From a virus: DNA of 34,289 nucleotides. The notes under the pieces are model-generated. The model was given only the letters and a program-made list of their open reading frames with translations, made no database searches and was not told where the DNA came from. The stretch spans positions 1 to 34,289 of IMG/VR virus record IMGVR_UViG_3300029913_000009; one strand, given 5' to 3'. This document shows, piece after piece, positions 1 to 17,309 of this stretch. Each line of letters opens with the position of its first letter. Position 1 is the first letter of the stretch. Made by a program: the position numbers and the translations under genes.

Positions 1-3000
1 AACTGCCCCTTACGGCTCATGACAGCCATCTCGTCGCCATCTTGAACGGCACGCTGAACTACAAACGCCTGACCATATCCGTAGACAATGTCTCCCTTCC
101 TCAATTCACGGGCTTCGATGGTGCGGATGGCTGCGGTTTTTCCATAGACCACCTCCACCTGTTCAGGGTAGAAGTTCACATACGAATCTCCTCCACCCTC
201 ACCCTCATTGTTATATACAATACCGTCATACCCAAGACGCTTCAAGGCTTCGGTGCTTGGGATGTCTTGCGGCCAACCCTCACCAGCCAATTCAGGGTAC
301 TTCCCAGCTTTAACAGCTTGGTTTAAAACAGCATCGTCGTTAACTTCCTTGTCGCCAGCGTAGATACCCTCGTAGTATTTCTTCGCCTCACGACGGGCCG
401 CAGCTTCGTTCTTGGCTTCTCCCTCCCATGAATACTGGGGGGAGTCCTTGTCCATCGTGCTCCGCAGACGAACGGTGAACGTGGGCAGTTTGCCATTGAC
501 TACCCGAATCTGGTCAGGGTAGAAAGCAATCCACGCTTCGTTCTTATACTGTGCTCCGTCGTAGCCCTGCTCTTCGAGGCTCTTCGCCAACTCCTTGAAT
601 TTGGGGTCACTCGGTGATACGTGCAGCGTATCGAGGTTAGCCGGATTGTTGATAGTCAGAATAGCCTCAATGATGTGACCGTCTGGTTGACCCGCGATGA
701 GGTCTTCACAATACTTGCGGCGGACATGGAACATGGCTGGAACTTCAAACGTGTCGAACTGCTTCGTGGTTCCGTGATACGCACGCACAGTCTTGGTGGA
801 TGCTGCCTTCTTACGGTCAATATCCACATTGGAGATAATCTTTACTTGGTTGGACGATAGAACACAGTAGGACTCACCCCCGAACTCTTGGTCATCGCCC
901 TCAGGAACCTTGGCTCCATCAAAGCCTAGATAGTGTAGAGCGTCGGTTACCTTTTTGTTGTCAAATAGGTCGTAAGCCCGGAACCCTTCCTCAAGCTGCG
1001 GCTCACGAATTTTTCGGTCATAGTTGTCACGACCATCATCAATCGCGAGTTCACCCCACTCGGTGCTAGTCATCTCGTCGGCCAACAGGTAATTGACAAG
1101 GTAATCCAACAATCCTGTGGACTTGTTCAGTTCTTCGGCGTGCTCTTCGTAAATCCCCGGCGAATCTTCAGCAGTGTCTGTCTTCTGAATCTTGTGCAGA
1201 GGAATCGGAGGCGTCGTGATGGATGTATTTACCCAGTTAGGGTTGGTTAGGTCGAGTAAGTTGTTGATGGTCAAATTCGCCGTGATAAGGCGACAGGGCT
1301 GCTTGGTGTGTTGCTGTCGATTCTTTGCGTACGCAATGGCTTGTTGCTTACTCTTGGTAAAGAAGAAGGCAAACACGTCAACCTCAAGCGTCATGCCGAG
1401 AAAACCCGAACGCAAACCCTTGTTTCGCTTGAAGTCATCAAAGTCATACGTTGTACCGTGGTAAACGGGTCCAATGGTCAGAGCCTGTTTCTTTATTCCA
1501 GCCCTATGACGAACATCCATGCGACGACGCACAGCCAACCGCTTAGACTGCACACTGGCGGTCTTATCCATGATGGCGGTGTAAGCTGCGGTCTTCGAAG
1601 CGGTAGTAGCCTTGTCTACAGGGGTGGATGAGATAATTTCCAACCTCCCTGAATCAAACACCCCTAAATTTGTGTGACCTTCTCCCTCTTCAAGGAATGA
1701 GTCGTAACCGTTCGCTTTCATCCAACGAACAAATTCAGGGCATTGGGTTGCATCCCAGTTCCTACGGGCAAGCGCCTTAATGTACCCCACTGGGTCGTCA
1801 TCACCATCCAACCAAATTTTGTTGTTCGCAATATCCTCATAAACTTTCTTACCCAAGGGGGTGAAGGTTTTGGGGTCAAGGTAATACCTCTCGCTATAGT
1901 TAAGCAAGTCCACACCATCAAAAGTGCTCTCAACATTAGCACGGACTTTATAAACCCACCCGTGGGCTCCGGCATGTAACTTAGCAAATCCCAAATCCGG
2001 GGTGAGAAAAATAGGCTGCTCGACAACTTCTTTAGTCACTCCCGCTTTGCTCACAGTTTTAAATTGGTCAAACTTATGGGGGCTACCATGATACCAATCA
2101 GCAGATATGGCTTTTGCGGCGGTTTTTTGGTCAAGTGGTTTTATGAGGGAAGGACTATAATTGTCATGGTTCAGGTTGACAAGGTATTCGTCGCCCATAC
2201 GTGTCCATTTGTACTCGTCCGCACGCGGGGATGATGCCGTGACCCGGTTGTCCTTAGGGTTGAACGTGCCAGCGTTCCCAATCGCACTCTTGATTTGACT
2301 AGGGGAGAATACAACAAAGTGGTCACAAATGGTGTGTGAATCTCCCGGAGTGTCCTCAACGTCCTTAAAAACCACCCCATCATGCCCCTTATCTCGCGCA
2401 CTTTTAATAAGGTCACCCACCGGAATCCAGTTACCTTCGGCATCTTTTATGTTGAGGAAGGAGCCGTTTGCTTCAATTACCTTGGGGTTCGTGATACGTA
2501 GGAATACGGGCATTACATTCATGCCTTTTGGTTCTTCTCGCAAAGCTGAGAATTCATGGTTCTCTAATTCAAGGGTGAGTCGCTCTAGGGTTTCCCAATC
2601 TCTCCTTCTCTCAGCTTTTTCAATTTCTTTGGATAGTTGATTGTACTTTTTTTCATGCTCTTCAACGTTATGAACGACTTGCTTACTTGCAAGATCAGCA
2701 TACTCTGAGGCGACTGTAGGGTGGGCGGCGAACCAAAAGCCCATACGTGCCGCGTTGTTTTGAGTAGAACCCCCTCCTCTCTCAGTGTTAAAAGTATCGA
2801 AGCTTTGATTTGTGCCGTGATATACACGCAGTGGCCGACCATGGTCATCAACCACCTTGCTCCCATTGAACCATGCTTGAAACGCAGGGTTCTTGGTAAC
2901 ATCCCCCGGCTGACCCATCCAGTCTTGGTCTTGGGTAAGCCCAGCCCCTTTTTTGGTTTGAAGGCAAAGACCCTCAGGCCATTGGGTTCCCGGCTTAGTT

Positions 3001-3305
3001 GCACACCAGATGGGAACACCACGATTTGCAGCGGTAGTGATGCGGTGCCGCCCGTCGAGCACATCTATCCGGTCGGTGTCGTAAGCATAGATTTTTGGAT
3101 AATCGTCAACTGATTCCAGCAGTTCCAGACGCTTCAACCGGCTGGGATTCCAGTCAAACTTCTCTCCGGGGTGTTGAGACTCCCACAGGGCTTTGAACTT
3201 CCCGGCGTCAATTAAGACGAGTTCATTGTAACCGCTATTTCTGCGGTGTCTCTTATTAAATGGGATTTCGTTTACGTCCAACCCGGTTGGAATGCGGTCT
3301 TCCAT
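1..3305 (-). CDS. Partial giant ORF (N-terminal ~1100 aa seen; runs off window start, no stop in window). Domains: N-terminal ParB-N-like nuclease ('IDVLDGRHRITTAANRGVPIW', ~2991..3128) followed by at least 4 tandem ART-like modules with 'YHGT/S..FDxF' cores near 2811..2828, ~2075, ~1450 and ~770. Polyvalent-type virion/injected protein.
   Basis: Hand-translated minus-strand frame from the ATG at 3305..3303 (SD AGGGG 8 nt upstream) is open to position 1. The ORF track shows only short conflicting ORFs on both strands across 1..3300, as expected when a stop-less ORF was not listed. The repeated peptide module 'xVYHGT...FDxF....G.......GFWFA.....A.EYA ... G[YHF]DG.V......[ED]S[YH]..[FV][VF].P.Q[IV]' recurs about every 650 nt (e.g. 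RVYHGTNQSFDTFNTERGGGSTQNNAARMGFWFAAHPTVASEYA; PVYHGTTYDFDDF; RAYHGTTKQFDTF; WYHGSPHKFDQF). Confidence 0.65.
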   Translation of the reverse strand, partial: MEDRIPTGLDVNEIPFNKRHRRNSGYNELVLIDAGKFKALWESQHPGEKFDWNPSRLKRLELLESVDDYPKIYAYDTDRIDVLDGRHRITTAANRGVPIWCATKPGTQWPEGLCLQTKKGAGLTQDQDWMGQPGDVTKNPAFQAWFNGSKVVDDHGRPLRVYHGTNQSFDTFNTERGGGSTQNNAARMGFWFAAHPTVASEYADLASKQVVHNVEEHEKKYNQLSKEIEKAERRRDWETLERLTLELENHEFSALREEPKGMNVMPVFLRITNPKVIEANGSFLNIKDAEGNWIPVGDLIKSARDKGHDGVVFKDVEDTPGDSHTICDHFVVFSPSQIKSAIGNAGTFNPKDNRVTASSPRADEYKWTRMGDEYLVNLNHDNYSPSLIKPLDQKTAAKAISADWYHGSPHKFDQFKTVSKAGVTKEVVEQPIFLTPDLGFAKLHAGAHGWVYKVRANVESTFDGVDLLNYSERYYLDPKTFTPLGKKVYEDIANNKIWLDGDDDPVGYIKALARRNWDATQCPEFVRWMKANGYDSFLEEGEGHTNLGVFDSGRLEIISSTPVDKATTASKTAAYTAIMDKTASVQSKRLAVRRRMDVRHRAGIKKQALTIGPVYHGTTYDFDDFKRNKGLRSGFLGMTLEVDVFAFFFTKSKQQAIAYAKNRQQHTKQPCRLITANLTINNLLDLTNPNWVNTSITTPPIPLHKIQKTDTAEDSPGIYEEHAEELNKSTGLLDYLVNYLLADEMTSTEWGELAIDDGRDNYDRKIREPQLEEGFRAYDLFDNKKVTDALHYLGFDGAKVPEGDDQEFGGESYCVLSSNQVKIISNVDIDRKKAASTKTVRAYHGTTKQFDTFEVPAMFHVRRKYCEDLIAGQPDGHIIEAILTINNPANLDTLHVSPSDPKFKELAKSLEEQGYDGAQYKNEAWIAFYPDQIRVVNGKLPTFTVRLRSTMDKDSPQYSWEGEAKNEAAARREAKKYYEGIYAGDKEVNDDAVLNQAVKAGKYPELAGEGWPQDIPSTEALKRLGYDGIVYNNEGEGGGDSYVNFYPEQVEVVYGKTAAIRTIEARELRKGDIVYGYGQAFVVQRAVQDGDEMAVMSRKGQ

Positions 3306-3350: not shown

Positions 3351-4709
3351 TCAAATCTTGTGAACTTCAGCCTTCATGGATGTACCACTTTCCACTCGCC
3401 CGGTGCGCCAATCGATGGGGGATTCCCCATAAGCCGCTTCCACCAGCCGTAGCGCCTTGGCAAAGTCCTCGGGATGCTGCTGCCACCACTCAATCATGCC
3501 CTTCTCAAGGTGAGTTACTCCCTGAAGATCGCGGGTGCCATTCTGAACCGCCTCGTAAACAGGGATGCAAGATGCCCAGACCGCAATCTGCCGTGCATTC
3601 GCTTCGGGCTTCACGAAGACATCTTTGGATTGAAGCGAAATACTCTCCGCAGGAATTGGGGTTTTCCAAAAAGCTTCCTGATAACGTGGAGCATAGTCCA
3701 GCCCCTCTGGAAGCTGCACTCGCAGGACACTGAACTTTTCAGTCAGGGTAGGGTAGTCTTCCCATCCCCATACATGGTTTTGAATGGCTGGAATCGGCAG
3801 TGACAGATAGTGATCGAGAGCCCCATGCCAACGAGTAACAGCATGGAAACCATCCAAGGGTAGCGTGGCTGTGTTGTTATTCTTGCTACTAATGAACGCC
3901 AACCCCTGTTGAACCGCCTTCTTGTACTTTTCCGCCATGGCTGGGTTGTCACGGATAACCCCGGTGTCTTTAGAGAGAGCGTCATATACACTGAGCCTCC
4001 ACCAACGGAGGTACCAAGAGATTCTGTCCTGTTTCTTCAGGTGGGTTTTAGCCCATTGAACTTCCCTCTTTACAATGGATTCAAATTGTGGCTGGTCGGC
4101 AATCAACTGCTTGAACATCGCCTCGTAGTCGTGGGCTACTTTATGGTCAGGCAAGAGAGTGTCCCAAGCTTCCTGTTCAGTCTCAAATACAGGGTCTGAG
4201 TGCAATGCGGGGGTTTCTGTGTGATGACGCGGTAGGAAGATGTTAGCATCTCCGGCTCCGGCAAATTTAGGCTTCGTCAATGGCGACTCCTGTATGTACC
4301 CTTCCTCATCCACAAACGTGTGCGGGTCGAGGTTAGCACTGTAGATGCTCTGCCACTGGTTACCCGTCCAGACTTCAATCTCGGAGTTCACACGTGAGCA
4401 GTAGTACGCCTCATGGCCGGAGTCGTTGGTGCCTTCCTCATCCTTGGTCAGATACTTTGGTTCCACAACACGGAGGACGACCGGCACGAGACCATCCTCG
4501 GCGATGTTATCTGAGTCATTGTAAGCGAACATCTCCGCTCGGTTGAGCCAGAAATCCACACCACCAGCGTCGGTCAGGAACACCTTACCGGCCTTGTAGC
4601 TCTTCAACGCCGGTCCGCCAATGCCGTTGTTGGCATTAGGCAGGAGACCGGAGGTGGCAATTTTGTCAAGATTGGCGAGGTAGGTTACGTGGTATAGAAA
4701 CTTAGGCAT
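3351..4709 (-). CDS. 452-aa protein with DarT/ART-like N-terminal module ('MPKFLYHVTYLANLDKIATSGLLPN ... GKVFLTDAGG ... EAYYCSRVNSEIEVW'). The rest is of unknown function.
   Basis: ATG verified at 4709..4707. It overlaps the upstream stop as 'cATGccTAA'. The N-terminal motif closely resembles the DarT N-terminus ('LYHFTHxxNLxSILxxGLL') and the H-x-T first strand of H-Y-E ADP-ribosyltransferases. Confidence 0.6.
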   Translation of the reverse strand: MPKFLYHVTYLANLDKIATSGLLPNANNGIGGPALKSYKAGKVFLTDAGGVDFWLNRAEMFAYNDSDNIAEDGLVPVVLRVVEPKYLTKDEEGTNDSGHEAYYCSRVNSEIEVWTGNQWQSIYSANLDPHTFVDEEGYIQESPLTKPKFAGAGDANIFLPRHHTETPALHSDPVFETEQEAWDTLLPDHKVAHDYEAMFKQLIADQPQFESIVKREVQWAKTHLKKQDRISWYLRWWRLSVYDALSKDTGVIRDNPAMAEKYKKAVQQGLAFISSKNNNTATLPLDGFHAVTRWHGALDHYLSLPIPAIQNHVWGWEDYPTLTEKFSVLRVQLPEGLDYAPRYQEAFWKTPIPAESISLQSKDVFVKPEANARQIAVWASCIPVYEAVQNGTRDLQGVTHLEKGMIEWWQQHPEDFAKALRLVEAAYGESPIDWRTGRVESGTSMKAEVHKI

Positions 4710-6195
4710 GGTTGTCCCCTACTTTGGAAGCCACAGTTGGAATTTCAGCACTGGCGGTCACGTTCTTCCACGCAGCATTGACGGGTCGCCATTGCCTGTC
4801 GTTCTCAGTTTTATATCCCAGCAATTGCAGCGGCGTTCCGTCTTTCAGACGAATCTCTTTCTCCTCCTCACCAAGCGAGGGGTTTAGATTGCATAGCATT
4901 GTGTTATCCCAGTCAACGTCGCGGTCGGATACTCGTGCCCAAAAATAATATTTGGACTGTCCGCGACCGAAACTCCCCCAATGGGCTTCTGCGGCATCCT
5001 CATCCCATGACCAGTAAGTTCCAAACCCCTGTTTCTTAAGTTGCTGAAGGCTCTCTAATGTCATGCAGCGGTAGACATTAAACTTGCCACCTCGACTGTC
5101 ATGTTCATAAAAGAAATGTTCGTATACACCTCGCAGGTAGTCAGTCGCTTGTTGTAGGGCATCTTCTTCTGCTTCAGGTGTGTTCTCCCCATTGAAATTG
5201 AACCACTCACTGATATTCCAATCATACTCACGAATGAGCCCCTTAATGCCTCCATGTTTCGCGAGGAAAGTGTCGAAATCAGGAAGGTAATCGGAGGCAT
5301 GGGCTGTCTTTTCCTCAGTAGATGCACGTAGCGGTTGAACACTGTGTGGGTTTTCAACTTCTTCGAAGAAGCTGCTCTGGCCGTCGCCTTCAAGGTCAGC
5401 GGTCTTCAACGTGGTAACATTTTTAACATCTTTACTGTCAAAAATGACGTAGTTACAAGTTCCGTCACCTCTGACTCGGCTGTCTCCATCAAGGTATTTA
5501 ATGCCCTTGACACCGAGAGAGCGCAGGTATTCGCTGGCCGCTTTGTCAGAGCCCTGTTGAACCGAAATGTCGCGGTAAACGGAGCGACCCGTGATGATGC
5601 CATCTATCTTGTTGTGGTCGGCCAAGTCACCCCAATCCGGACTGGACTCTTCAGCACCTTTTCTCGCGTTTGCGATTTCATTCACAAGCACCTTGCGAAC
5701 TAATGGTGATTGCTCACTGAGGGGTTTGTCCCAGTCGAGTAACACATTGTCTTCGGGGATGTCAGCCTTGTACAACTGACCTCCGGACTGCTTCTCAATG
5801 GGAGTTTTGCAGAACTCCAAGAATCTCTTCTTGGTTGTCCTATGGTTTCCATTGAAACCGCCCATGTAACGAGCCCCCAGTTCTTGGTCGGCCCAGTCCT
5901 TGTCCACCGGGCCGTACTCCTGCGCCAACCAAGCCATTTCGGCTGGAACGTAATCCGGGTCACGCCGCGTGATTCTCCGGCCATTGACCACATAAGACCA
6001 GTCGGGCTTGTTCTTCTCCAAAGATGTTCGATAATACTCAGCAACATCTCGGTTTCCCGCGAAGTACAGTCCCCCACCCGTAGGTCTGATTACCTTCACC
6101 CGTGTTGATTCTGTCCGTGTCGAATGAATCGAAATGGAAAGGAGTGCCGTGATAAACTTCCTTGCCCAACTTCGCCCCCGGCACCATGGCCTCAA
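4702..6195 (-). CDS. ORF continuing the polyvalent protein in the +1 frame (TTG-initiated as listed; no good independent start). Its N-terminus completes an ART-like module ('TGGGLYFAGNRDVAEYY ... GVKGIKYLDGDSRVRGDGTCNYVIFDSKDVKNV'). This is probably the C-terminal ~445 aa of the polyvalent gene, separated by a frameshift at 6071..6075.
   Basis: It overlaps the polyvalent 3' end by 158 nt in another frame. The peptide 'GLYFAGNRDVAEYY' matches 'GFWFAAHPTVASEYA' of the gene-1 modules and PARP 'GIYFADMVSKSANY'. The 'YHGT' first half of this module is encoded just upstream in the polyvalent frame. Confidence 0.55.
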   Translation of the reverse strand: MRPWCRGRSWARKFITALLSISIHSTRTESTRVKVIRPTGGGLYFAGNRDVAEYYRTSLEKNKPDWSYVVNGRRITRRDPDYVPAEMAWLAQEYGPVDKDWADQELGARYMGGFNGNHRTTKKRFLEFCKTPIEKQSGGQLYKADIPEDNVLLDWDKPLSEQSPLVRKVLVNEIANARKGAEESSPDWGDLADHNKIDGIITGRSVYRDISVQQGSDKAASEYLRSLGVKGIKYLDGDSRVRGDGTCNYVIFDSKDVKNVTTLKTADLEGDGQSSFFEEVENPHSVQPLRASTEEKTAHASDYLPDFDTFLAKHGGIKGLIREYDWNISEWFNFNGENTPEAEEDALQQATDYLRGVYEHFFYEHDSRGGKFNVYRCMTLESLQQLKKQGFGTYWSWDEDAAEAHWGSFGRGQSKYYFWARVSDRDVDWDNTMLCNLNPSLGEEEKEIRLKDGTPLQLLGYKTENDRQWRPVNAAWKNVTASAEIPTVASKVGDNHA

Positions 6196-9100
6196 GACTT
6201 GGCATCAAACTGTTGCCTTCTACACGCTCGGGCTGAAGGGCATACGCATTAGAGCCCTCACCGTCGTTCTTGTCCATGTTGGGGAACGTGGTGTCGGACA
6301 TCGGGGTCTGCTTGTGACTCCCAAATTTCATCACACCCACCAGCTTTAAGCACCGAGGGTTGTAGAAACACACACCTCCGAAGGATTCATCAGCCAATCC
6401 GTCAACTCCCTTTTGTACCATCATTTTGGGGAAGTTTGGATTTGCATCAGGACGTACTTTAAGTGCGGCGTACTCGTCCCAGTCATCCGATTCTTTCAAG
6501 TCGAGGATATGTCCACCAATGATTTCAAACTCCAGCACAACTCCACCTTCTTCGTCATCCGAGAAGTCGGCGTAGTTTGATTTGGCAAGGTCAGGATCGA
6601 GTGCAGTGTAAAATGCTGTACCAAAATAGCCGGGGCTGCATTTGGTTATATCCACTCCACGCTTGCGAATGTCTTCTGCTGACTTTGAATCAGTGCCGTG
6701 GTAGACGTGGGTTCCTTTTAGAATTGAAGCGGTTTTATTCACCTCTTCTGCAAAGCCGGGGTTGCACTCGGGGCATGTGCATATTGGGCACTCATGACTT
6801 CCGCAATAGGCATGATATTTTTTCTGGATAGCAGCGCCCGGTGGAACTACGAGTATGTCAGGCGGTCCGAACTGGTCATGGGTGCCGTCGATGATCGTGC
6901 CATCTTTCATCACGTTCCAAGAATGGTCGCCATGGCCGTTGTGTCCCTTATCAGGAGTGGGGTACAGGTAGAATCCACTGGCTTTTTCCCAGCCGAACTT
7001 GTTCTCAAGTATGTCGGCCATGGTGTGACATTGGCCTTCTCCATCCTCCTCGCGTAGGGTTTTTAGAATCGCCCGGATTTGTGGTATGTCGATTGTTTTC
7101 TTGGCACCAACCTTTAACTGGTTGTAGTCGGCGATGTATGGCTCAAATACTTTAATTTTCTGCTCGATGTCCTTCTTTTGTGCAGGGTCTTTAGCACTCT
7201 TCAACATATCCACAAGCGCCTCATACTGCTGCACAATTGCGGCCTGTTCTTCACGTGAGTGATTCCACATGCGGTCACTCTTCAACCGAAGGTCTTTCAG
7301 TGTCTGAACGATTGTGTTGGGGTCTTTCATCTTGCCGTATGGGTCAGCTTCATTGGTCTTTGGGAAGCGATTTCCTTGTGGGTCGATTTCCGACTGCATG
7401 ATGTGAGTGGTCTCATGTGCTGTAAGCTGGTCTGCAATTTCGGTGTGTAGGAACATATCTATGTATTTAGGGTTGACATAAACTACCCGAGTACCTTGTT
7501 CCACCTGACAGATTTCATCTCCACCCCCTTCTCTAGTGGAGGGCACGCCAGCTTTGAACGTGATTGTATTTGGGTCTCCTATCCGGCTTTGAATAGTTTG
7601 TGGTAGGCGCTTAATCATGTCATGCCCTACTTGATTCAATTCCTTGTCATGAGGGTTAGAAGGAGGTGTGGTGGTGTGTTTTGAGACCAAGGCAGTACCG
7701 AGTGCTCCTGAAAGCAACGCGACACCAAGCCCCTTTAATACATCCTTTACTCCAGCCTCTTTTGTCACTCCACTGGGAACATACAGCCCAGCTTCCTTGA
7801 TGTACTCAGCTTCTCCCATATCCAGAATCCGTTTGAGAGACTTGAGATAGATGATGGCTTCACTGAAATTGCGGTGACCCAAGGCAACAGCCGCGAACTT
7901 GGCGTATCTCTGAGCGCGGTTATAAACAGTCAATCGGCTATGAGCGTTACCGTAAGCCTCCCACAGCTTGAAAAATTCTTTCGCCAGTTCCTCATAACTG
8001 CGACCCTTGAGCTTCGGGTTGTTGTCTTCCACTTGAGCCCGGTAATTGTTCTGCATGTTCTCACGCACTTCGCGTTCGAACCCATACTCATTGGTCAGCC
8101 AGTAAAGGCACTTATCTACCTTGTCTTTTACAATTCCGTACTGCCCCTGAAAGTAGGTGAAGTGTTGAGCCATACGGTTCGTAATGTCACCACAGTGCTC
8201 CAGCGCGTGAGTGCCAATGCCAGCACCTAAAGGATGCATCTGGCAACGAAGCATGGCCTTCTCAGGCTCTCCTCTTTGGTCGGAAGCTAGTTCATCGAAC
8301 TTCTTATCTCGTTCATTTTCTACAGCGGCTGTCTTCACCTTCTTCCCACTCAAACCAATAGCAGAGGGTGGGATGAAGTCGTAGAAGATGCGTTCGTTGG
8401 GGTTAAGCATCCCACGCACAGGGCCACCAGTATGTCCCCCAATGTCGGTGCCATATTGGTCACGCTTATAGGTGGCAATGGTGACACGGGCAGGGACTTC
8501 GGTGAGCCCAGCCATCTGTGCCTGTGCGATACGATGGTTGCCTTCGATCACAAGGGCTGTGTTGGTATCCTTAAAATAACGGAGGGTAATAGGCGACCGG
8601 ATGCCATGGCGCTTGATGTCTTCGACAGAATCATGAAACGCATCCTCACCATGCCGGTTGTCCTTTGGGCTCCAGTGATACTCACGCAGGGGGAGTAGCT
8701 GAGAGATGGGCACGTACTCTACCCACGGCTCGGATAACTCGCGTGCGTATGCCTGAGGAAGCCAGTCCTTATACTTATCAGACTCCATCATGGTTTCCCA
8801 TTTGGTGCTTTCATCCTCTCCGCGTGCATACGCTTCCTTAACGCTGCTGGTTTTAATTGACGTGTTAATTGACGCGATGTTGGTCTTAATTGACGCGATG
8901 TTGGTCTTAATTGACGCGAAATGTTGGATACTGGCTGTCTTGTCTTCACTCTTCACAGCTACGAGCACGGTGTTCTTGGCATACTTCATTTTGTCATCTT
9001 CAATGTCAACCAACTCTTGAGCAATCTCCATCGCTCTTTCGCGAGTCACGCCTTCACGCATCTCTTGACGCAGGAGTTCAACGGTATCATCATTGTCGTC

Positions 9101-11986
9101 ATCCCACAGCGGCTCCTCGGCGCTGAGGTCATTCTGGTCAACTGAGAACATGTCTCCAGTTTCCTTGTTCCACGCATAGACAAAAATATCGGGTAGTTTG
9201 GCCAGTTGTTTCCAAACGGCACGGCCACCATCGGTCTGCTTATCGCCTGATACGATGGTTGGGCAGTGACCATTTTTAATCAACCACGCATACAGCTTAG
9301 CGGGTAATCCTAGCCCCAAATACCAGTTGTCAAAAGCGATAGCACCGATGCTGAAGTAATGCTCTTGCTGATCCATTTCACAGAACCCGGCATTCCTTTT
9401 ATTCACACTGTCGTACACCGCAAAGGTGGGTTCCTTTTCATCGTAATTTGCTTTGCTTATTTGATAGGAGCCCATCTTGCCAACGGGTGATGCGGGTTTT
9501 GGATCAAACTGGGATTGTGTGAAAAAGTCCCACCGTCTGGACATGACCCTGAACAAGCTCATTGGACTGCCAGTGTCTCGAATTCCATGATCCCACTTGT
9601 TGATGGCAGTCTTCGTCGCCTTGAAGTCGATGTAATAGCGGCCCTTGGACTTCTTCACTGGGTAACGTTGTGCCAACCGCTTCCATGCCTTGTGAGCATC
9701 CGGCTGCATATCGGTGCTAGACCATAGGCGGTCGGCACCCTGCTTCTTCGCTTCTTCAATCGCACGGTCGTAGAGCATCTGACCGAGGCCAGTTCCACGC
9801 CAGTCATCCTCAATAGAGACATCGAACACATAGTCCTTGCCGTTTTCCTTATCCAGTTCAATGTAACCAACCGGCAACGTGTGTTGAGAGTGCGGATTCG
9901 GGCGGCGGTCGGGTGTCCATGCTTCAATGACAAGCGTGTCGCCTCCTATCATCCTGCCGGGGCGCACTTCGAAAGTAATCTTGCTGAGGTCTTCCTCGCG
10001 GTCGTTGTATTTCTTGTAACCAAAATCAGGCATGGCGGTCTTCACATAGCCCCGCAACGGCTGCTTAATCAACGCATCAACCTGAGGTCGTCCTTCGAAT
10101 ACCTGCACTACTTCCAAATCTTCCGGCTTGCAAAGAAAGTTGGTGTAGGTTTCCCACGTATCCACAGCCGCAGCCCGAGGAGAGAAGTTTCCGTTCACAC
10201 CACCATCGGCGATGAGCCGGTTCAACCCATCTACTGTTTTCTTCATGGTTGCGTAGTGGCGGGTCGATTCAAAGTTCTTGATGCGACACTTTATGATGGC
10301 CGGTTCACCATTCAACCGGGAGTTCTTTACATCACGAGTGCTGTATTTGCCGAGAAGGTAGGCTTCGATTTGACGTGGGACTTCGCCACCGCCCCCTGCC
10401 CAACGACCGGCAACCCCACCACCCGGTGAGGTGCTGACTAAATGGGCTTCACCTTGATAGCTCCGTCTGGTCATTCCCAGCGTTTTGACCATCTTCTTGG
10501 GGATGTCGGCCTCGGTCATGTCGTATTTTGCCAGCACATCTTGTAGAATGGCATCGAACTCAAGCCCACGGAAACCCTCCTTGAGAATTAAGTTGGCTAT
10601 TTCTACTGTAGTTCCATGATAGACGATACCTGACAGAGCATCCTGCTGCAAGCTGTTCCATACATCCTGACCGTCAGTTGCAGCGGCGGTTTTCCTTCCC
10701 TGAGACTTCAAAGGAATGCGATACCGCCTTTGAGTGTCATCGTATTCTACGGGATAACGTTCACTGAGGCGCTTCCAAGCCCCAACTGCGTCTTTACTGA
10801 GGTTGTTGGGGGTTACGTCTGAATACAGATACTCTGCGCCCCGTTTCTTAGCCTGTGCAATAACGCGGTCGTACAGCATCTGACCTAAACCAGTGCCACG
10901 CCATTCCGGCTTGATATTAGAATGGGTAATCGCGTAGGAAAGTTCCTCTCTGTTCAAAAACAATTTCTCGGCGGTGACGTATCCCTGCGTCTTCTCCATG
11001 GATTTTTTGATGGGGTCGATTGCTTCGGCCTCAAGCAAATGAATGCCGTGGTCCGGCTCCTGAATGCGGAGTTTTTTCAAGTCTTTTTCACGATCATTGA
11101 ACTTTGTGTAGTTGAAGTCAGGACTGGCAACTTTAGACGTAGTTTTATGCTTCGCTATCCTCGGGGGTTTAAGCTTGAACTGTTGCAAAATGTCTTCACC
11201 ACTATCCCATAGTTCCTTGAGTCTGGACTTCTGCTCGTCCGTTCTTGGCATGGAGGAACCATGATACTTAATCATAGGAGCCCCATACTTCATTAGGATG
11301 GGGTCAGTGCTCATGAACAACCGCTTGGGATAAGTCATCTTTCCATCAGCACATTGGCCGAGGTATTCTTTCTGCTTAGGGCTCAAGCGAAGCGAGATTT
11401 GCCAACCCAAAGTGCTTCCACTGCTGTCGGCAGAGATGAGAACGTAAAAAGGACGGAGGTTAGTATCGTCAGTTACTGTGTCTTGGTCAGATGTTTTTGT
11501 AACAAAATTGGCACCGTACTTGGCATTAAAACGTTGAGCTATTGCCATCCACTTAGGACCGTGACCACCGTCACCACGATGAATACCACGCATCATTTTG
11601 TATGTATGAAACCCGTACTTCTTCAGGTCGGCAACTTCATTAACAAGGAAATCCTCTGAGTGGGCCAACTCATGAGCCAAAATCCTACGAAGTGTACGTT
11701 CATCTCCCGTTACTCGTTTTTGAATTTCAATCTCAGTGTTATCCCACCAGAAAGGCTTCCCTTCTTTTAGACCATATTGCCAATGACATAGACCGAGGGT
11801 GTTGCCTTGACTGTTGTTTATTTTTATCTTGGGTCTAGGGAGCCCCGGAGCTAGTACGGTCATCATCTCATTGATGATAGCGTCTATCTTACTTAAAACT
11901 TCAAAGTTTTGGTTTGCGGCTGTTTTGAACGCAGTAGTGCCCGTCACTTGTGCCGCATCTGTTTTTTGAAGGAGTTCGTTCCGCAT
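6038..11986 (-). CDS. Giant polyvalent protein (1982 aa from ATG 11986; TTG at 11992 also possible). Domain order: SprT-like zincin, GNAT, ART-like, GNAT, GNAT-like, ASIKTNI tandem repeat, ParB-N, HExxH zincin, C4 Zn-ribbon, ART (H-Y-E), truncated C-terminal ART.
   Basis: Single 5.95-kb ORF. Motifs: 'RILAHELAHSEDF...GGHGPKW' (SprT); 'WRGTGLGQMLYDR[VA]I..AKK.GA' twice (GNAT); 'ITLRYFKDTNTALVIEGNHRIAQAQMAGLTEVP' (ParB-N); 'LTAHETTHIMQSE' (HExxH); 'VYHGTDSKSAEDIRKRGVDI...GYFGTAFYTA...GGVVLEFEII' (ART); 'CGSHECPICTCPECNPG'. The architecture matches phage/conjugative-element polyvalent proteins. Confidence 0.85.
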   Translation of the reverse strand: MRNELLQKTDAAQVTGTTAFKTAANQNFEVLSKIDAIINEMMTVLAPGLPRPKIKINNSQGNTLGLCHWQYGLKEGKPFWWDNTEIEIQKRVTGDERTLRRILAHELAHSEDFLVNEVADLKKYGFHTYKMMRGIHRGDGGHGPKWMAIAQRFNAKYGANFVTKTSDQDTVTDDTNLRPFYVLISADSSGSTLGWQISLRLSPKQKEYLGQCADGKMTYPKRLFMSTDPILMKYGAPMIKYHGSSMPRTDEQKSRLKELWDSGEDILQQFKLKPPRIAKHKTTSKVASPDFNYTKFNDREKDLKKLRIQEPDHGIHLLEAEAIDPIKKSMEKTQGYVTAEKLFLNREELSYAITHSNIKPEWRGTGLGQMLYDRVIAQAKKRGAEYLYSDVTPNNLSKDAVGAWKRLSERYPVEYDDTQRRYRIPLKSQGRKTAAATDGQDVWNSLQQDALSGIVYHGTTVEIANLILKEGFRGLEFDAILQDVLAKYDMTEADIPKKMVKTLGMTRRSYQGEAHLVSTSPGGGVAGRWAGGGGEVPRQIEAYLLGKYSTRDVKNSRLNGEPAIIKCRIKNFESTRHYATMKKTVDGLNRLIADGGVNGNFSPRAAAVDTWETYTNFLCKPEDLEVVQVFEGRPQVDALIKQPLRGYVKTAMPDFGYKKYNDREEDLSKITFEVRPGRMIGGDTLVIEAWTPDRRPNPHSQHTLPVGYIELDKENGKDYVFDVSIEDDWRGTGLGQMLYDRAIEEAKKQGADRLWSSTDMQPDAHKAWKRLAQRYPVKKSKGRYYIDFKATKTAINKWDHGIRDTGSPMSLFRVMSRRWDFFTQSQFDPKPASPVGKMGSYQISKANYDEKEPTFAVYDSVNKRNAGFCEMDQQEHYFSIGAIAFDNWYLGLGLPAKLYAWLIKNGHCPTIVSGDKQTDGGRAVWKQLAKLPDIFVYAWNKETGDMFSVDQNDLSAEEPLWDDDNDDTVELLRQEMREGVTRERAMEIAQELVDIEDDKMKYAKNTVLVAVKSEDKTASIQHFASIKTNIASIKTNIASINTSIKTSSVKEAYARGEDESTKWETMMESDKYKDWLPQAYARELSEPWVEYVPISQLLPLREYHWSPKDNRHGEDAFHDSVEDIKRHGIRSPITLRYFKDTNTALVIEGNHRIAQAQMAGLTEVPARVTIATYKRDQYGTDIGGHTGGPVRGMLNPNERIFYDFIPPSAIGLSGKKVKTAAVENERDKKFDELASDQRGEPEKAMLRCQMHPLGAGIGTHALEHCGDITNRMAQHFTYFQGQYGIVKDKVDKCLYWLTNEYGFEREVRENMQNNYRAQVEDNNPKLKGRSYEELAKEFFKLWEAYGNAHSRLTVYNRAQRYAKFAAVALGHRNFSEAIIYLKSLKRILDMGEAEYIKEAGLYVPSGVTKEAGVKDVLKGLGVALLSGALGTALVSKHTTTPPSNPHDKELNQVGHDMIKRLPQTIQSRIGDPNTITFKAGVPSTREGGGDEICQVEQGTRVVYVNPKYIDMFLHTEIADQLTAHETTHIMQSEIDPQGNRFPKTNEADPYGKMKDPNTIVQTLKDLRLKSDRMWNHSREEQAAIVQQYEALVDMLKSAKDPAQKKDIEQKIKVFEPYIADYNQLKVGAKKTIDIPQIRAILKTLREEDGEGQCHTMADILENKFGWEKASGFYLYPTPDKGHNGHGDHSWNVMKDGTIIDGTHDQFGPPDILVVPPGAAIQKKYHAYCGSHECPICTCPECNPGFAEEVNKTASILKGTHVYHGTDSKSAEDIRKRGVDITKCSPGYFGTAFYTALDPDLAKSNYADFSDDEEGGVVLEFEIIGGHILDLKESDDWDEYAALKVRPDANPNFPKMMVQKGVDGLADESFGGVCFYNPRCLKLVGVMKFGSHKQTPMSDTTFPNMDKNDGEGSNAYALQPERVEGNSLMPSLEAMVPGAKLGKEVYHGTPFHFDSFDTDRINTGEGNQTYGWGTVLRGKPRCC
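6503..6709 (-). other. ART (H-Y-E type) domain of the polyvalent protein.
   Basis: 'VYHGT' ... 'GYFGTAFYTA' ... 'VVLEFEII'. Confidence 0.6.
7193..7675 (-). other. Second HExxH zincin-like region of the polyvalent protein ('LTAHETTHIMQSEIDP').
   Basis: HExxH with a downstream Glu. The family is uncertain. Confidence 0.4.
8453..8710 (-). other. ParB N-terminal (ParB/Srx-fold nuclease/NTPase-like) domain of the polyvalent protein.
   Basis: 'LVIEGNHRIAQAQMAGLTEVPARV', a G-x-H-R ... G...VP motif. Confidence 0.7.
8851..8927. repeat. In-frame 21-nt tandem repeat 'ttaattgacgcgatgttggtc'. Two perfect copies plus two degenerate flanking copies. Encodes (ASIKTNI)n in the polyvalent protein.
   Basis: Read directly in the sequence at 8851..8927. 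Protein: 'FASIKTNIASIKTNIASINTSIKTS'. Confidence 0.9.
9623..10030 (-). other. GNAT acetyltransferase domain 2 (internal duplicate of domain 1).
   Basis: 'WRGTGLGQMLYDRAIEEAKKQGADRLW'. At the DNA level it is similar but diverged from domain 1 (10868..10906 against 9760..9802). Confidence 0.7.
10253..10630 (-). other. ART-like module inside the polyvalent protein ('IVYHGTTVEIANLILKEGFRG ... GRWAGGGGE ... NGEPAIIKCRIKNFE').
   Basis: H-G-T strand, Gly-rich aromatic segment and a trailing acidic strand, as in the other modules. Confidence 0.45.
10718..11110 (-). other. GNAT acetyltransferase domain 1 of the polyvalent protein.
   Basis: 'WRGTGLGQMLYDRVIAQAKKRGAEYLY', the acetyl-CoA-binding motif A (R/Q-x-x-G-x-G/A). 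Confidence 0.7.
11498..11815 (-). other. SprT-like zincin domain within the polyvalent protein (HELAH at ~11660..11674).
   Basis: 'HELAH' followed by 'GHGPKW' downstream, the SprT/DUF45 pattern. Confidence 0.6.
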
Positions 11987-12018
11987 CCGCAATCCTGCCT
12001 ATATAAGAAAGCGGTAGT

Positions 12019-12336
12019 CTAAAGGACTAAATCCCGTATTTCCTTGAACCCCAACAGCCTCTGGCGTTCTATGTCGAAAGCTTTACCATGCCGGTGACCG
12101 CACTTGATGTGGATCATTTCGTGGATTAAGGTGACTTTGGAGATAGCTCTCCACCCCCCAACGAAAGGGTTGATTCGGATTCTCCATATCTTTTCTTCTT
12201 CCAGATATAAACAGTCACCGAAGGTGGCTCCCCCTAATGGCTCCCACCAAACCACAGCGTCAGGTAGTTCTCCACCAAAGTATAGTTTGTTGAACTTGAT
12301 ATAGTATCTCTTAAGCTGGCGGTCGGATTTTAGCAT
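12019..12336 (-). CDS. Free-standing SprT-like zinc metalloprotease (105 aa from ATG 12336; GTG at 12342 listed).
   Basis: 'LYFGGELPDAVVWWEPLGGATFGDC...TLIHEMIHIKCGHRHGKAF'. SD GGGAGG 9 nt upstream of the ATG. Confidence 0.6.
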   Translation of the reverse strand: MLKSDRQLKRYYIKFNKLYFGGELPDAVVWWEPLGGATFGDCLYLEEEKIWRIRINPFVGGWRAISKVTLIHEMIHIKCGHRHGKAFDIERQRLLGFKEIRDLVL

Positions 12337-12363
12337 TTCCACAGCCTCCCGGAGCCCGAGGCT

Positions 12364-12903
12364 CTACTTGAAGGAGACGGTAGTCATCGACTGAAGAGCT
12401 TTTAGATAAGTAAGACCAGCAGTTTTTACAGTGGTACTGCTGTTTTTAGGCGTCCTACCCTGCTCTTCCTGATGCGCCTCAATCGTGTCGAAGGCATAAT
12501 CGAAGGGGACTTCAGAGATGTCACCCACGCGGTCGTCATCCCAGCCGGTTGGATAATGGGCGAGGTACATTTCTAAAGCTGAATCCAAATTCGGGAAACC
12601 CAACATAATCTTGTACTCATCTAGCTTCCCCTTTGCATCCAACTGCTCTATCACAAACACCTTGTCCGACGCCTCATCTTCGCCAATATAAACATCCAGA
12701 CCCTCCCCGTCCCTGCCGTTAACGTCGGAGACGTAGCCATAATCGCATTGCATGGTCCTCTTCCAAGGCTTGCCCTGTTCATCCTTGCCTGTACGTACTG
12801 AATTTTTTGGCCATTCGATTACAATGGGAATGCCTCGGTACTCAGTGGAGTGCCGCTGAGACAATTTTTCAGCTATGCGAAGAAACTTGGATTCAAAATT
12901 CAT
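12364..12903 (-). CDS. ppa: Inorganic pyrophosphatase (family I) homolog, 179 aa.
   Basis: 'VIEWPKNS' against E. coli PPase 'VIEIPANA'. 'DYGYVSDVNGRDGEGLDVYI' against '[20 protein letters not shown]'. 'DAKGKLDEYKIMLG' against 'DEAGEDAKLVAV'. The size matches. Confidence 0.55.
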   Translation of the reverse strand: MNFESKFLRIAEKLSQRHSTEYRGIPIVIEWPKNSVRTGKDEQGKPWKRTMQCDYGYVSDVNGRDGEGLDVYIGEDEASDKVFVIEQLDAKGKLDEYKIMLGFPNLDSALEMYLAHYPTGWDDDRVGDISEVPFDYAFDTIEAHQEEQGRTPKNSSTTVKTAGLTYLKALQSMTTVSFK

Positions 12904-13058: not shown

Positions 13059-14690
13059 ATGGTTGGAGGAGACCGCTTGAGCGTTAAAAAGAAGAAGCCA
13101 GCAACACCCCCGGAGAAGTCCCCATTAACGCTTTCTCCACCGTCTAAAGAAGACATAGTAGCCGACGCGCAGCGAGTCGCTAAGTTGTTGCCTGAGGGAG
13201 AAGAACTAACCCGAGGATTCTATCGTAATCACAGGAACAAGCAGCTTATTAGAGAAAAGGATGTAGAGTGGCATTTTCCTAAGTTTGGCGGTCTTGTTCT
13301 GGCTGCGGGTTTGAAGGCGACAACGCAACAAGTAGAAGAGAACCCCTCTCAAACCATCACGGATGAGGAGCAAGACCTTATCTACGATAAGGACTATGTT
13401 TACAACAAGGAGACGGACACATATATCACCCCCCTTCCTCGCACCCTTGGTGGGAAAAGCGTTATCCTTGCGGGAGAGATTCATCGTGCGATGTTGAAAG
13501 CCTACTCTAACTGGGATGGAGCGTCCGAGACCATCAATGAAATTTGTCGTCGGTTTAAATTCCGTCGCGATTGGTTCATGGAGTATAAGGCTCTGCATGG
13601 ATGGACCCATGATAAAGAGCCCTTCACCAACGAGGAGCTAATCACTCGTGATGTGGATGATATGGCGGATGACGCGGTTCAACAACTTCGTCTGAAGGTA
13701 TTCAACTCCTATCAGAAAAAAGTTTGGCAAGCAACCATTACCGATGCGAAGAAGTGGAACCATTTTGAGCAGTCAGTTTTACTCCCTCTGAGCGAACAGA
13801 TTAAGCAAACGCTGTCAGACTATAAACCGCCAATGCTTACTCTTCCAAAAAGTGATGAGCCCTACGCTCTTGTGGTAGCCCCTTTCGACTTGCACTTCGG
13901 TAAGTATGGTTGGATGGATGAAACCGGACAAGGATACAGCCGCTCTGAAGCACGTGATTTGCTTATGGACAAAACCAATGAGTTGGCAAAGTATGTTGCC
14001 AAACTGGGTCGTCCTGAATTGGTCGTAGTGGCTTCTGGGTCAGACTGGTTTCATATTGACAATCAATGGAATACCACAACACGTGGTACACCACAAGACA
14101 CTGATGGAACACCTTCACAGATTTTGATGGAGGGGTGTCAATTGGCCTACGACCACATCGAAATGCTTCGACAGCTTGCTCCCATCAAATACCTCAATGT
14201 CCCCGGCAATCATGATTACAACAACGCCATCAGTATGATGATGTTTTTGCTTGGCAAATACACGGGGGCCAAAGATGTGGAAATTATTCAGTCTCCACAG
14301 AAGCGGCAGTATGTAGGGTACGGTAACTCCCTTCTTGGCTTCGGCCATGGGGATTGCGTGGCCCCGAAAGACATGATGTCGGCTATGGTAAAAGAGGCGA
14401 AGGATTTGTTCACTCACAGCGAGTTTCAATACTTCTTCTCAGGGCATCTACACCACGAGATTGCTCGGGAGATTGGAGGACTGACCCACTACCAACTGAA
14501 GAGTTTGTCAGGGTTAGATCGTTACCATTCAAAGCATGGCTACATTACTTCAGGTCGTGCGTTACAGTCCTTTGTGGTCAGTCGTACAAGTGGTGTTACG
14601 CTTCAGATTAACTGCAACGTCATTGGAGACACGCTGTTCGGGGTGAAGGAACGAAACGTTAACACCAAATCGAAAGCGAGGCATTACTAA
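13059..14690 (+). CDS. 543-aa protein with a C-terminal calcineurin-like metallophosphoesterase domain (SbcD/Mre11-like motif set). N-terminal ~250 aa unknown.
   Basis: 'VVAPFDLHFG', 'GSDWFHIDN', 'NVPGNHDYNN', 'GFGHGD', 'FSGHLHHE'. Confidence 0.65.
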   Translation: MVGGDRLSVKKKKPATPPEKSPLTLSPPSKEDIVADAQRVAKLLPEGEELTRGFYRNHRNKQLIREKDVEWHFPKFGGLVLAAGLKATTQQVEENPSQTITDEEQDLIYDKDYVYNKETDTYITPLPRTLGGKSVILAGEIHRAMLKAYSNWDGASETINEICRRFKFRRDWFMEYKALHGWTHDKEPFTNEELITRDVDDMADDAVQQLRLKVFNSYQKKVWQATITDAKKWNHFEQSVLLPLSEQIKQTLSDYKPPMLTLPKSDEPYALVVAPFDLHFGKYGWMDETGQGYSRSEARDLLMDKTNELAKYVAKLGRPELVVVASGSDWFHIDNQWNTTTRGTPQDTDGTPSQILMEGCQLAYDHIEMLRQLAPIKYLNVPGNHDYNNAISMMMFLLGKYTGAKDVEIIQSPQKRQYVGYGNSLLGFGHGDCVAPKDMMSAMVKEAKDLFTHSEFQYFFSGHLHHEIAREIGGLTHYQLKSLSGLDRYHSKHGYITSGRALQSFVVSRTSGVTLQINCNVIGDTLFGVKERNVNTKSKARHY

Positions 14691-15148
14691 TGCTGACCAT
14701 AACCAAAGGATACAAGCCAGAAGATATTGACAGTATCCATAACCTAGAGAACGCTTGCTTCAGCCGACCATATCGTTGGAGCAAGCAAGACCTAACCTCC
14801 TCTCTGGAGACGGTCAACACACATGTTTGGGTCGGGGTGTACGATAGCAAAGTGGTGGGGTATGTGCTTGTTGAGATAGATAAAGACGAAACCACCGGGC
14901 ATGTTGTTTCATTATGCGTTGACCCATCATGTCAACAACAGGGATTCGGTAAGTTGTTGATGGAGGAGGCAGAGACCTCCCTTAAAAAGCTGGGTGTAAG
15001 GAAAATGAGACTTGAGGTACAAGTGGACAACCCCGCTCAAGTTTTATATTTCAAGCTGGGGTATCGAGTGGTCGGAGTCACACAGAAGTATTACTCCAAC
15101 GGCACCGCTGGTATCACGATGGTTAAGCCTTTGAAGCGCCGGTCTTAG
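14690..15148 (+). CDS. GNAT family N-acetyltransferase (RimI-like), 152 aa.
   Basis: 'GYVLVEIDKDETTGHVVSLCVDPSCQQQGFGKLLMEEAE...LEVQVDNPAQVLYFKLGY'. ATG overlaps the upstream stop (TAATG). Confidence 0.8.
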   Translation: MLTITKGYKPEDIDSIHNLENACFSRPYRWSKQDLTSSLETVNTHVWVGVYDSKVVGYVLVEIDKDETTGHVVSLCVDPSCQQQGFGKLLMEEAETSLKKLGVRKMRLEVQVDNPAQVLYFKLGYRVVGVTQKYYSNGTAGITMVKPLKRRS

Positions 15149-15254
15149 CGTCTTCATTTTACTCTCGGGCCTCGGAAGGATGACACGTTATCAAAACCGT
15201 GACCTTCAAGTACGTGGCTCCCTACTAAGGAACCACGTAGTTCAGTCTTTGGGA

Positions 15255-15941
15255 CTAATCCCACAATGAAGAATAGTGGCGAACAAAGAGCAGCATCCCC
15301 TCTTCGAAAATTTTACGGTCACGGTCTGCAAGGGCTTGAGATGCCTTGAAACGGTCGTGCTTGACCTTCTCCCACGCCTCAGCAGATACCCCGGACGGCC
15401 TGTCCATGGGGTACGGACCGAGTTCCTCTTCGTAGAGTCCGGAGTTGATGTGACGGTCAGCCTCAAAGGCTGCAATCATCTTGTCAATAATCGCGTCCCA
15501 ACGGGCTGAGGCGCGTTCCATGCCCTCTTCCGAGGGGTTACCCCGCCAATCCCCCTCAGAGATGCAGTCCTCGGGCTCAAAGACGCTGCTAGGCACACCC
15601 TGCTTGTCCTTCTTCAGCTTGCGAAGGGCATCAGGCATCCAACTGCTGAGATAGTGGTCGAGACTCCAGATGTCACGGTCAGACCAGCCGCGACGGCCAC
15701 GCTGAATGAAGCACTTCACGGCGTAATAAGCCTCACGCGGGTTACCCCACGGAGAGTATTTGAAGAAGCGGTAGAAGACGTAGTAGAGGTCTACGAGGCG
15801 GGAACGACGATTGTGATCGTCGATGTTGAAAATCTGAAAATCCCAAAACATGCGGCATTCAGACGCAAGGGTGAATCCTTCTTCAGTCTTCTTGCGAAGA
15901 CGAAGGAACACCAGTACCTTGTGAAAGATAGAGTTGAGCAT
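15255..15941 (-). CDS. Hypothetical protein, 228 aa.
   Basis: ATG verified at 15941. Protein-like composition. No recognisable motif. Confidence 0.5.
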   Translation of the reverse strand: MLNSIFHKVLVFLRLRKKTEEGFTLASECRMFWDFQIFNIDDHNRRSRLVDLYYVFYRFFKYSPWGNPREAYYAVKCFIQRGRRGWSDRDIWSLDHYLSSWMPDALRKLKKDKQGVPSSVFEPEDCISEGDWRGNPSEEGMERASARWDAIIDKMIAAFEADRHINSGLYEEELGPYPMDRPSGVSAEAWEKVKHDRFKASQALADRDRKIFEEGMLLFVRHYSSLWD

Positions 15942-16127
15942 TCGAGTTGTGTCCTTCCTTACTTAGTGATTACACAATCGCATTACTCTTCTCCTTTGTA
16001 CAGCGGCAGTGGCACTACTATAGAATACCCAAAGTTCAAGAAAATACAACAGAAAAATTTGAGGGCGAGGCAACTGGGACAATCCCGCAGTGCTTCTCAC
16101 CCTCAGAGAATGAATAAGGGGTATAAA

Positions 16128-17237: not shown

Positions 17238-17309
17238 CAGGACGTTCACTAACGAAAGGAAAAGTCGTCGCGTGAAGTCACTTTCGAGGGCACTAATTTT
17301 CGATTTAGC

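Follow-up and report, generated by a model that had tools for sequence, protein, structure and literature searches.

Programmed +1 frameshifting is exemplified by Escherichia coli prfB, with its CUU UGA C site and upstream Shine-Dalgarno (SD)-like element, and by the capsid and tail genes of Listeria phage PSA. Transcriptional slippage normally requires runs of ~8-9 A or T, and phase variation at homopolymeric tracts, typically 7 nt or more in length, is known from the contingency loci of Neisseria, Haemophilus and Campylobacter. The ADP-ribosyltransferases (ARTs) of polyvalent proteins, in turn, are defined by a His in strand 1, a Tyr in strand 2 and an Asp in strand 5 (Iyer et al. 2017, PMC5512222). 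The locus described here, in which a frame break at a run of G residues falls within such an ART, lies in a stretch of viral DNA of 34,289 nt (IMG/VR record IMGVR_UViG_3300029913_000009), which is referred to below as the window; all coordinates are those of the window.

The window has a phage gene context, including a terminase large subunit, an SNF2 helicase and exonucleases. The first of the two open reading frames (ORFs) at the break is encoded on the minus strand and extends mechanically over 6038..11992 (1984 codons from a TTG at 11992), but gene callers prefer the ATG at 11986. The resulting truncated polyvalent gene (6038..11986, minus strand; hereafter the G5 allele) encodes 1982 aa and stops at the TGA at 6040..6038. 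Its product contains an SprT-like domain, two GNAT domains, ParB_N and two further HGT (PARP-like) modules, and keeps the 32 first residues of a terminal ART domain together with a 10-aa out-of-frame tail, TVLRGKPRCC; the terminus reads ...VYHGTPFHFDSFDTDRINTGEGNQTYGWGTVLRGKPRCC*. The 105-aa SprT-like gene located directly upstream showed no BLASTP similarity to the N-terminus of the polyvalent protein, and the idea that it is a split-off piece or duplicate of that N-terminus was rejected for this reason.

The second ORF lies in the +1 frame of the same strand and overlaps the first. It is called as 4702..6099 (minus strand; 465 aa from a GTG at 6099), and the mechanical ORF reaches a TTG at 6195. 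The ORF reads ...PTGGGLYFAGNRDVAEYY... and then ...GVKGIKYLDGDSRVRGDGTCNYVIFDSKDVKNV, with GVKGIKYLDG..GDGTCNYVIFDSKDVKNV likewise past PTGGGLYFAGNRDVAEYY; its content is the remainder of the ART domain and a C-terminal region of ~210 aa. At the junction there is a run of five G residues (6071..6075, minus strand; C5 on the plus strand), the site of a 1-nt insertion relative to an intact allele with four G residues (G4), and in the G5 allele translation stops 11 codons past this run. Frame 0 contributes YGWG and the +1 frame contributes GLYFA, which places the frame change inside the G run itself. When one base was deleted in silico, a single ORF of 2429 codons without internal stops was obtained, reading GEGNQTYGWGLYFAGNRDVAEYY. 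Thus, the sequence confirms the original prediction that the polyvalent frame ends in the middle of a module of which the remainder lies in the +1 frame, that CCCCC is present on the plus strand at 6071..6075 and that removal of one G makes the module continuous. The motif of 'gene 1' quoted there for comparison, RVYHGT...GGGSTQNNAARMGFWFAAHPTVASEYA, is also found, near position 2777 on the minus strand.

The ART-PolyVal-type domain straddles the frame break and spans 5416..6157 (minus strand), from VYHGT to DVKNV. Of its catalytic codons, frame 0 contains that of the His (6151..6149) and the +1 frame those of the Tyr (6066..6064) and the Asp (5439..5437), so that neither G5 product can be a complete ART. 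The Pfam family PF18760 (ART-PolyVal) matched the fused sequence only, across the junction (residues 40-89), with an E-value of 6.2e-7 and a score of 30.7 bits that is slightly below the curated cut-off of 31.2 bits, and there were no matches for either ORF alone. In a search of 5.8 billion proteins, more than 100 proteins aligned as a single chain with 94-98% of the fused 256 aa, and many homologues with E-values of 1e-20 to 1e-32 carried a precomputed PF18760 annotation; none was a close relative, the best having 40% identity. Comparison with related phage genomes, proposed at the outset as a search for an uninterrupted ORF, revealed a single frame in all six related phage or viral loci: tblastn against GenBank phages found the fused 256-aa segment whole in BK063671, Tunturiibacter phage Tunturi_5 and Sulfitobacter phage phiGT1, and a one-frame ART domain was also present in three IMG/VR contigs. 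Conservation of the break was tested among near-identical and distant genomes, and no relative shares it. The contiguity of all homologues makes G4 the ancestral state.

An alignment of 15 sequences yielded the consensus HGSPHxFDxF...GTGEGAQAYGWGLYFA. In this alignment, G30, G32 and Y34 of the segment YGWGLYFA, which crosses the junction, are invariant, as is H6, and D243 (NYVIFD) is found here and in most of the aligned sequences. In the predicted structural model, the His and Tyr lie in strands E2-8 and E33-36, respectively, and the Asp just past strand E237-241, and the predicted fold is that of a PARP/diphtheria-toxin-like ADP-ribosyltransferase. A predicted model also matched a pre-ejectosome tail protein of Cyanophage A4 (PDB 9k3a, chain B), with an identity of only 15%. 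Judging from the sequence comparisons, each ORF carries part of a single domain, and the split is no chance resemblance.

The domain, by the same measure, is of the ART-PolyVal/Tox-ART-HYD2 type, located at the C-terminal end of a polyvalent protein, and its predicted activity is NAD+-dependent ADP-ribosylation. It has the same His-Tyr-Asp layout as the ART-PolyVal (PF18760)/Tox-ART-HYD2 clade (PMC5512222) and, once the frames are joined, matches the family at a score just under the curated cut-off; as with the ART-PolyVal domains described in that study, it is found terminally in a large, multidomain phage protein, beside GNAT domains. It differs by a helical insert of ~110 residues that follows the Tyr and precedes the C-terminal strands, a feature common to the closest homologues, and the window allele further differs in that a frameshift separates strand 1 from strand 2.

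Further contigs of this phage were gathered by exact-protein look-ups of neighbouring genes. They came from JGI metagenomes (33000299xx, 3300030020, 3300030506 and 3300037278), from ENA (with MEGAHIT-style k141 names) and from Logan assemblies of SRA runs, and, judging from the assembler naming, would all derive from short-read (Illumina-type) data. Runs carrying the phage include SRR8555123, SRR8555051, SRR8555044, SRR9021116 and SRR30280140, and JGI samples carrying it include 3300029911, 3300029914, 3300029915, 3300029922, 3300030020 and 3300030506. The longest contigs of the phage reach ~116 kb, and the window is 100% identical to the JGI contig Ga0311361_10000489 (83.7 kb) over the shared 14.7 kb. 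No match to the region was obtained by megablast against GenBank phages, by an exact DNA pattern search in IMG/VR or in two metagenome contig scans.

The junction was covered by 17 distinct contigs at 99.7-100% identity, of which 16 carry G5 and one carries G4, although the JGI, ENA and Logan assemblies may share reads or libraries, so that the truly independent observations number fewer than 17. A look-up not conditioned on the break returned 8 G5 contigs and 1 G4 contig; another such look-up, with the InPase gene, returned no additional contig reaching the junction. In the G4 contig (L006; JGI 3300029914, Ga0311359_10009185), the gene is called uninterrupted, and its protein is identical to the in silico repair over all 2145 available residues. 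The proposal that the two ORFs constitute one gene of ~2430 aa is thereby upheld by a natural allele that encodes the intact protein.

The G5 allele occurs on haplotypes that differ in the presence or absence of a 21-nt repeat unit, of a 22-SNP patch and of an additional G at 3928, as well as in a C/T polymorphism at 8495. Thus, the G5 contigs are not one assembly copied many times. When G/C runs of at least 5 nt were compared between the contigs and the window (244 comparisons), the sole length difference was at the junction run, with no length change in any of the 227 run-by-contig comparisons at the other runs. Six of these other runs lie inside the same 1984-codon ORF and leave it unbroken, and other long ORFs of the window likewise pass intact through G/C runs of at least 5 nt.

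When the junction run was set against the SNPs linked to it, at 8495 and 8477, three of four possible combinations of alleles were observed, so that a single mutational event suffices. All four combinations occur between the 8495 SNP and the 3928 insertion, which indicates that recombination or recurrent mutation shuffles these alleles. The 3928 insertion itself is a frameshift allele of the neighbouring 452-aa gene (AAAAG to AAAAGG at ~3928, in six contigs) and lies outside any homopolymer (G1 to G2 after AAAA), which speaks for indels arising in the ordinary way under relaxed constraint.

The SNPs of the upstream ORF comprise 24 synonymous and 11 nonsynonymous changes. The sole SNP of the downstream ORF is a nonsense change at 5866, which converts the TAC (Tyr) codon at 5866..5868 (minus strand), within the orphaned part of the ART, to TAA in one contig with a G5 background (L009). 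This single event is what relaxed constraint predicts. In all other contigs the downstream 465-codon frame is open; at a diversity of ~0.1-0.3%, however, this says little either way.

These results are best explained, with a probability that we put at roughly three in four, by a real gain of one nucleotide (G4 to G5) in the final enzymatic module of a polyvalent effector gene of ~2430 aa, as a result of which the module has been lost. The derived G5 allele would now dominate a nearly clonal phage population across many metagenomes, with the ancestral intact G4 allele persisting in at least one sample. The 1982-aa protein of the G5 allele retains the SprT, GNAT and ParB domains and the two other HGT modules, but from the terminal ART it keeps only strand 1 with the NAD-binding His. 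Strand 2 with the catalytic Tyr, strand 5 with the Asp and the C-terminal region of ~210 aa are left in the +1 frame, behind a GTG without a ribosome-binding site: no SD-like sequence precedes the GTG at 6099, unlike other genes of the window. The ORF at 4702..6099 is thus probably an untranslated or poorly translated remnant in the G5 allele, and we infer that the downstream part is mostly not made and that the terminal ART module is inactive. Of the three causes put forward in the original prediction, a real frameshift mutation is the best supported; a sequencing error is contradicted by the occurrence of G5 in 16 contigs, and for programmed +1 frameshifting or slippage no positive support was found.

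Loss of the module was probably tolerated or even favoured, given that the adjacent gene of more than 4000 aa (window 1..3305 and beyond) contains other ART-PolyVal copies, with several strong matches (E = 5.7e-48), and that the remnant appears to have begun to decay, as suggested by the single nonsense SNP. One of the two other HGT modules of the polyvalent gene itself gave a weak PARP match. The most likely reading is that a redundant terminal effector module was lost. Against it, the presence of G5 in 16 of the 17 contigs and on several haplotypes, while compatible with neutrality or positive selection, is equally compatible with some functional product.

The gene belongs to a class whose products are thought to enter the host by injection and to undermine its defences. 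With the loss of the terminal ART as the preferred reading, the locus would offer a modest but clear-cut case of a wild phage population that has lost, or switched off, an effector module of which the intact form still circulates, and the G4 and G5 alleles form a natural on/off pair for probing the function of the ART module; no new mechanism is revealed. For annotation, the two ORFs are best treated as one polyvalent gene with a frameshift allele, and the 465-aa 'hypothetical protein' found in many metagenome assemblies as the detached C-terminal portion of an ART-PolyVal domain with its unassigned tail.

Recoding would provide a different explanation, in which the G5 allele yields two products, one of 1982 aa and one of ~2430 aa made through ribosomal or RNA-polymerase slippage, with the terminal ART being sub-stoichiometric. 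At the site (UGG GGG ACU), the G5 run permits tRNA-Gly to re-pair in shifted frames, such that a +1 shift (GGG to GGA) would give YGWGLYFA and a -2 shift, with perfect GGG re-pairing, YGWGGLYFA; low-level spontaneous slippage is therefore possible. The run also resembles an SD sequence, as does the prfB stimulator, and G5 is present at high frequency on several haplotypes, with the downstream frame open in 15 of the 16 G5 contigs. However, the A-site codon ACU is common (15.9 per 1000) and GGG is not rare (11.7 per 1000) among the 7368 codons of the window used for the calculation, and the 0-frame stop lies 11 codons downstream rather than at the site. The SD-like G run overlaps the putative shift codon instead of sitting 3 nt upstream. 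Moreover, the 151 nt around the site show no unusual RNA structure compared to shuffled controls (z = -0.73), the downstream frame is interrupted by a stop in one G5 contig, and transcriptional slippage would normally call for a run of ~8-9 A or T rather than five G. Finally, the break is present in no near or far relative, and an intact G4 allele exists. Recoding is, in our judgement, unlikely.

The site resembles those of prfB and PSA in that a +1 change is needed for the full product and in that a G-rich, SD-like sequence is found at the site. It differs from them in having neither a stop or slow A-site codon nor a properly spaced stimulator, and in that the break is unconserved in relatives and coexists with an intact allele. 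Two defining features of programmed frameshifting, a slow or stop codon and a conserved break, were thus tested and found to be absent, and the site does not belong to this class. We also considered a prfB-like +1 shift at CUU CGC, two codons past the run; this candidate was rejected, since its product, YGWGTVLAGNR..., would be without the invariant catalytic Tyr.

Alternatively, replication slippage could toggle the G run, as a contingency tract, between G4 (ART on) and G5 (ART off). Such phase variation would let the phage population spread its risk over two kinds of host, those sensitive to the terminal ART effector and those able to sense it, and it would suit an effector class thought to be active in host-phage conflict (PMC5512222). 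Genomes that are otherwise near-identical differ in the length of this tract, and no other G/C run varies; as in the loci of Neisseria, Haemophilus and Campylobacter, a change of one G in a naturally polymorphic tract switches the frame of a conflict-related gene. The window tract is, however, very short, at 4-5 nt, against the usual minimum of 7 nt in known contingency tracts. Only two lengths were seen, and one event is enough to explain the three allele combinations found with the SNPs at 8495 and 8477. The frameshift allele of the 452-aa neighbour, in addition, lies outside a homopolymer, and the locus looks more like one in which ordinary indels are tolerated in an accessory effector island. 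The G4/G5 run is therefore a poor fit to contingency loci, and phase variation appears distinctly improbable.

It is similarly doubtful that the run serves as a switch in the broader sense, either as a reversible phase tract or as a nascent recoding site with low-level +1/-2 slippage. If it did, the run would tune the amount of the terminal ART effector that is made and packaged with the ejected polyvalent protein, the phage population could vary its counter-defence arsenal, and the frameshift allele of the 452-aa gene would be part of this on/off repertoire.

Two further explanations have less in their favour. If the gene were split but functional, translation of the downstream ORF would start separately, at the GTG at 6099 or by re-initiation, and its product would either act independently through its C-terminal region or combine with the upstream fragment into a two-piece ART. 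Gene callers do predict the 465-aa product from this GTG, and the frame is open in most contigs, but the start has no SD-like sequence before it, the product lacks strand 1 and the catalytic His, no homologue is so organised, and one contig carries the nonsense allele; a split gene is highly unlikely. Least probable of all is that the genome is G4 throughout and that sequencing or assembly erred at the homopolymer, as might be supposed from a break that sits in a homopolymer and from the perfect domain restored by removal of one base, since the recurrence of G5 across three assembly sources (JGI, k141-named ENA and Logan), in many runs and samples, while no other run varies and other long ORFs stay intact through such runs, makes an error very unlikely.

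The candidate products can be told apart by their predicted peptides. The truncated 1982-aa product is predicted to yield the tryptic peptide INTGEGNQTYGWGTVLR, and the product of a -2 shift the tryptic peptide INTGEGNQTYGWGGLYFAGNR. The junction peptide predicted for the intact allele, or for a +1 shift, is INTGEGNQTYGWGLYFAGNR, with ...YGWGGLYFAGNR as an alternative junction form.

Comparison of metagenome contigs from the same near-clonal phage population with the window revealed a second frameshift polymorphism, at position ~3928, within the neighbouring 452-aa gene (window 3351..4709, minus strand), which adjoins the downstream ORF. Six contigs (L014, L015 and L017-L020) carry one additional G at this site (CGGAAAAGTAC changed to CGGAAAAGGTAC), which converts the gene into 2 overlapping ORFs of 273 aa and 183 aa; the window holds the intact form, and the insertion site lies outside any homopolymer run. 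When the insertion was considered together with the C/T SNP at 8495, inside the polyvalent gene, all 4 possible allele combinations were found among the contigs, suggesting recombination within the population.

Contig L005 is nearly identical to the window except for 22 SNPs concentrated within ~260 bp (window 10172..10430). This patch corresponds to residues 521-607 of the polyvalent protein, inside its first HGT module, and the substitutions are for the most part synonymous; it looks like a recombination or gene-conversion tract derived from a diverged relative. The polyvalent gene also contains a perfect tandem repeat of a 21-nt unit (2.6 copies, window 8865..8919), encoding ASIKTNI repeats, the copy number of which is variable: L005, L009, L014 and L015 have one unit fewer than the window, an in-frame change that yields a polyvalent protein of 1975 aa rather than 1982 aa. 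Further gene-length variation, among contigs L023, L025, L027 and L028, affects the stretch at window ~13059..17249, on the upstream side of the polyvalent gene. There, an exonuclease-like gene encodes either 537 or 543 aa, and the gene at 16128..17249 either 335 or 365 aa (with an additional 38-aa call), depending on the contig, which suggests more start-site or indel polymorphisms.

At the junction between the downstream ORF and the 452-aa gene (window 4702..4709), the stop codon of the former overlaps the ATG of the latter (ATGCCTAA). In the G4 allele, which has four Gs in place of the five at 6071..6075, there could be translational coupling between the end of the intact 2430-aa gene and the 452-aa gene. 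In the five-G allele (G5), ribosomes arriving from upstream stop 1.3 kb short of this point, and polar effects on the effector genes farther downstream could result. The 452-aa protein had no Pfam or PHROG family match at the usual thresholds; judging from its sequence, the N-terminus (LYHVT...GKVFLTD...) reads like a further His-containing ART-like strand pattern.

The giant gene immediately downstream (minus strand, window 1..3305) continues past the start of the window and encodes 4167 aa as called on longer contigs (L004, 11405..21359). This further polyvalent effector gave several matches to ART-PolyVal (E 5.7e-48 for the portion inside the window), besides one to cREC_REC and a faint one to PARP. 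Directly upstream of the polyvalent gene lie 2 small, stand-alone genes on the minus strand, encoding a 105-aa protein with a weak SprT-like match (window 12019..12342) and a 179-aa protein with an InPase domain (window 12364..12903). BLASTP detected no similarity between the 105-aa protein and the N-terminus of the polyvalent protein. Matches to the 179-aa protein lie in the interior of very large phage proteins, some of them in DarB-like antirestriction PHROGs. Both small proteins look like free-standing counterparts of polyvalent-protein modules.
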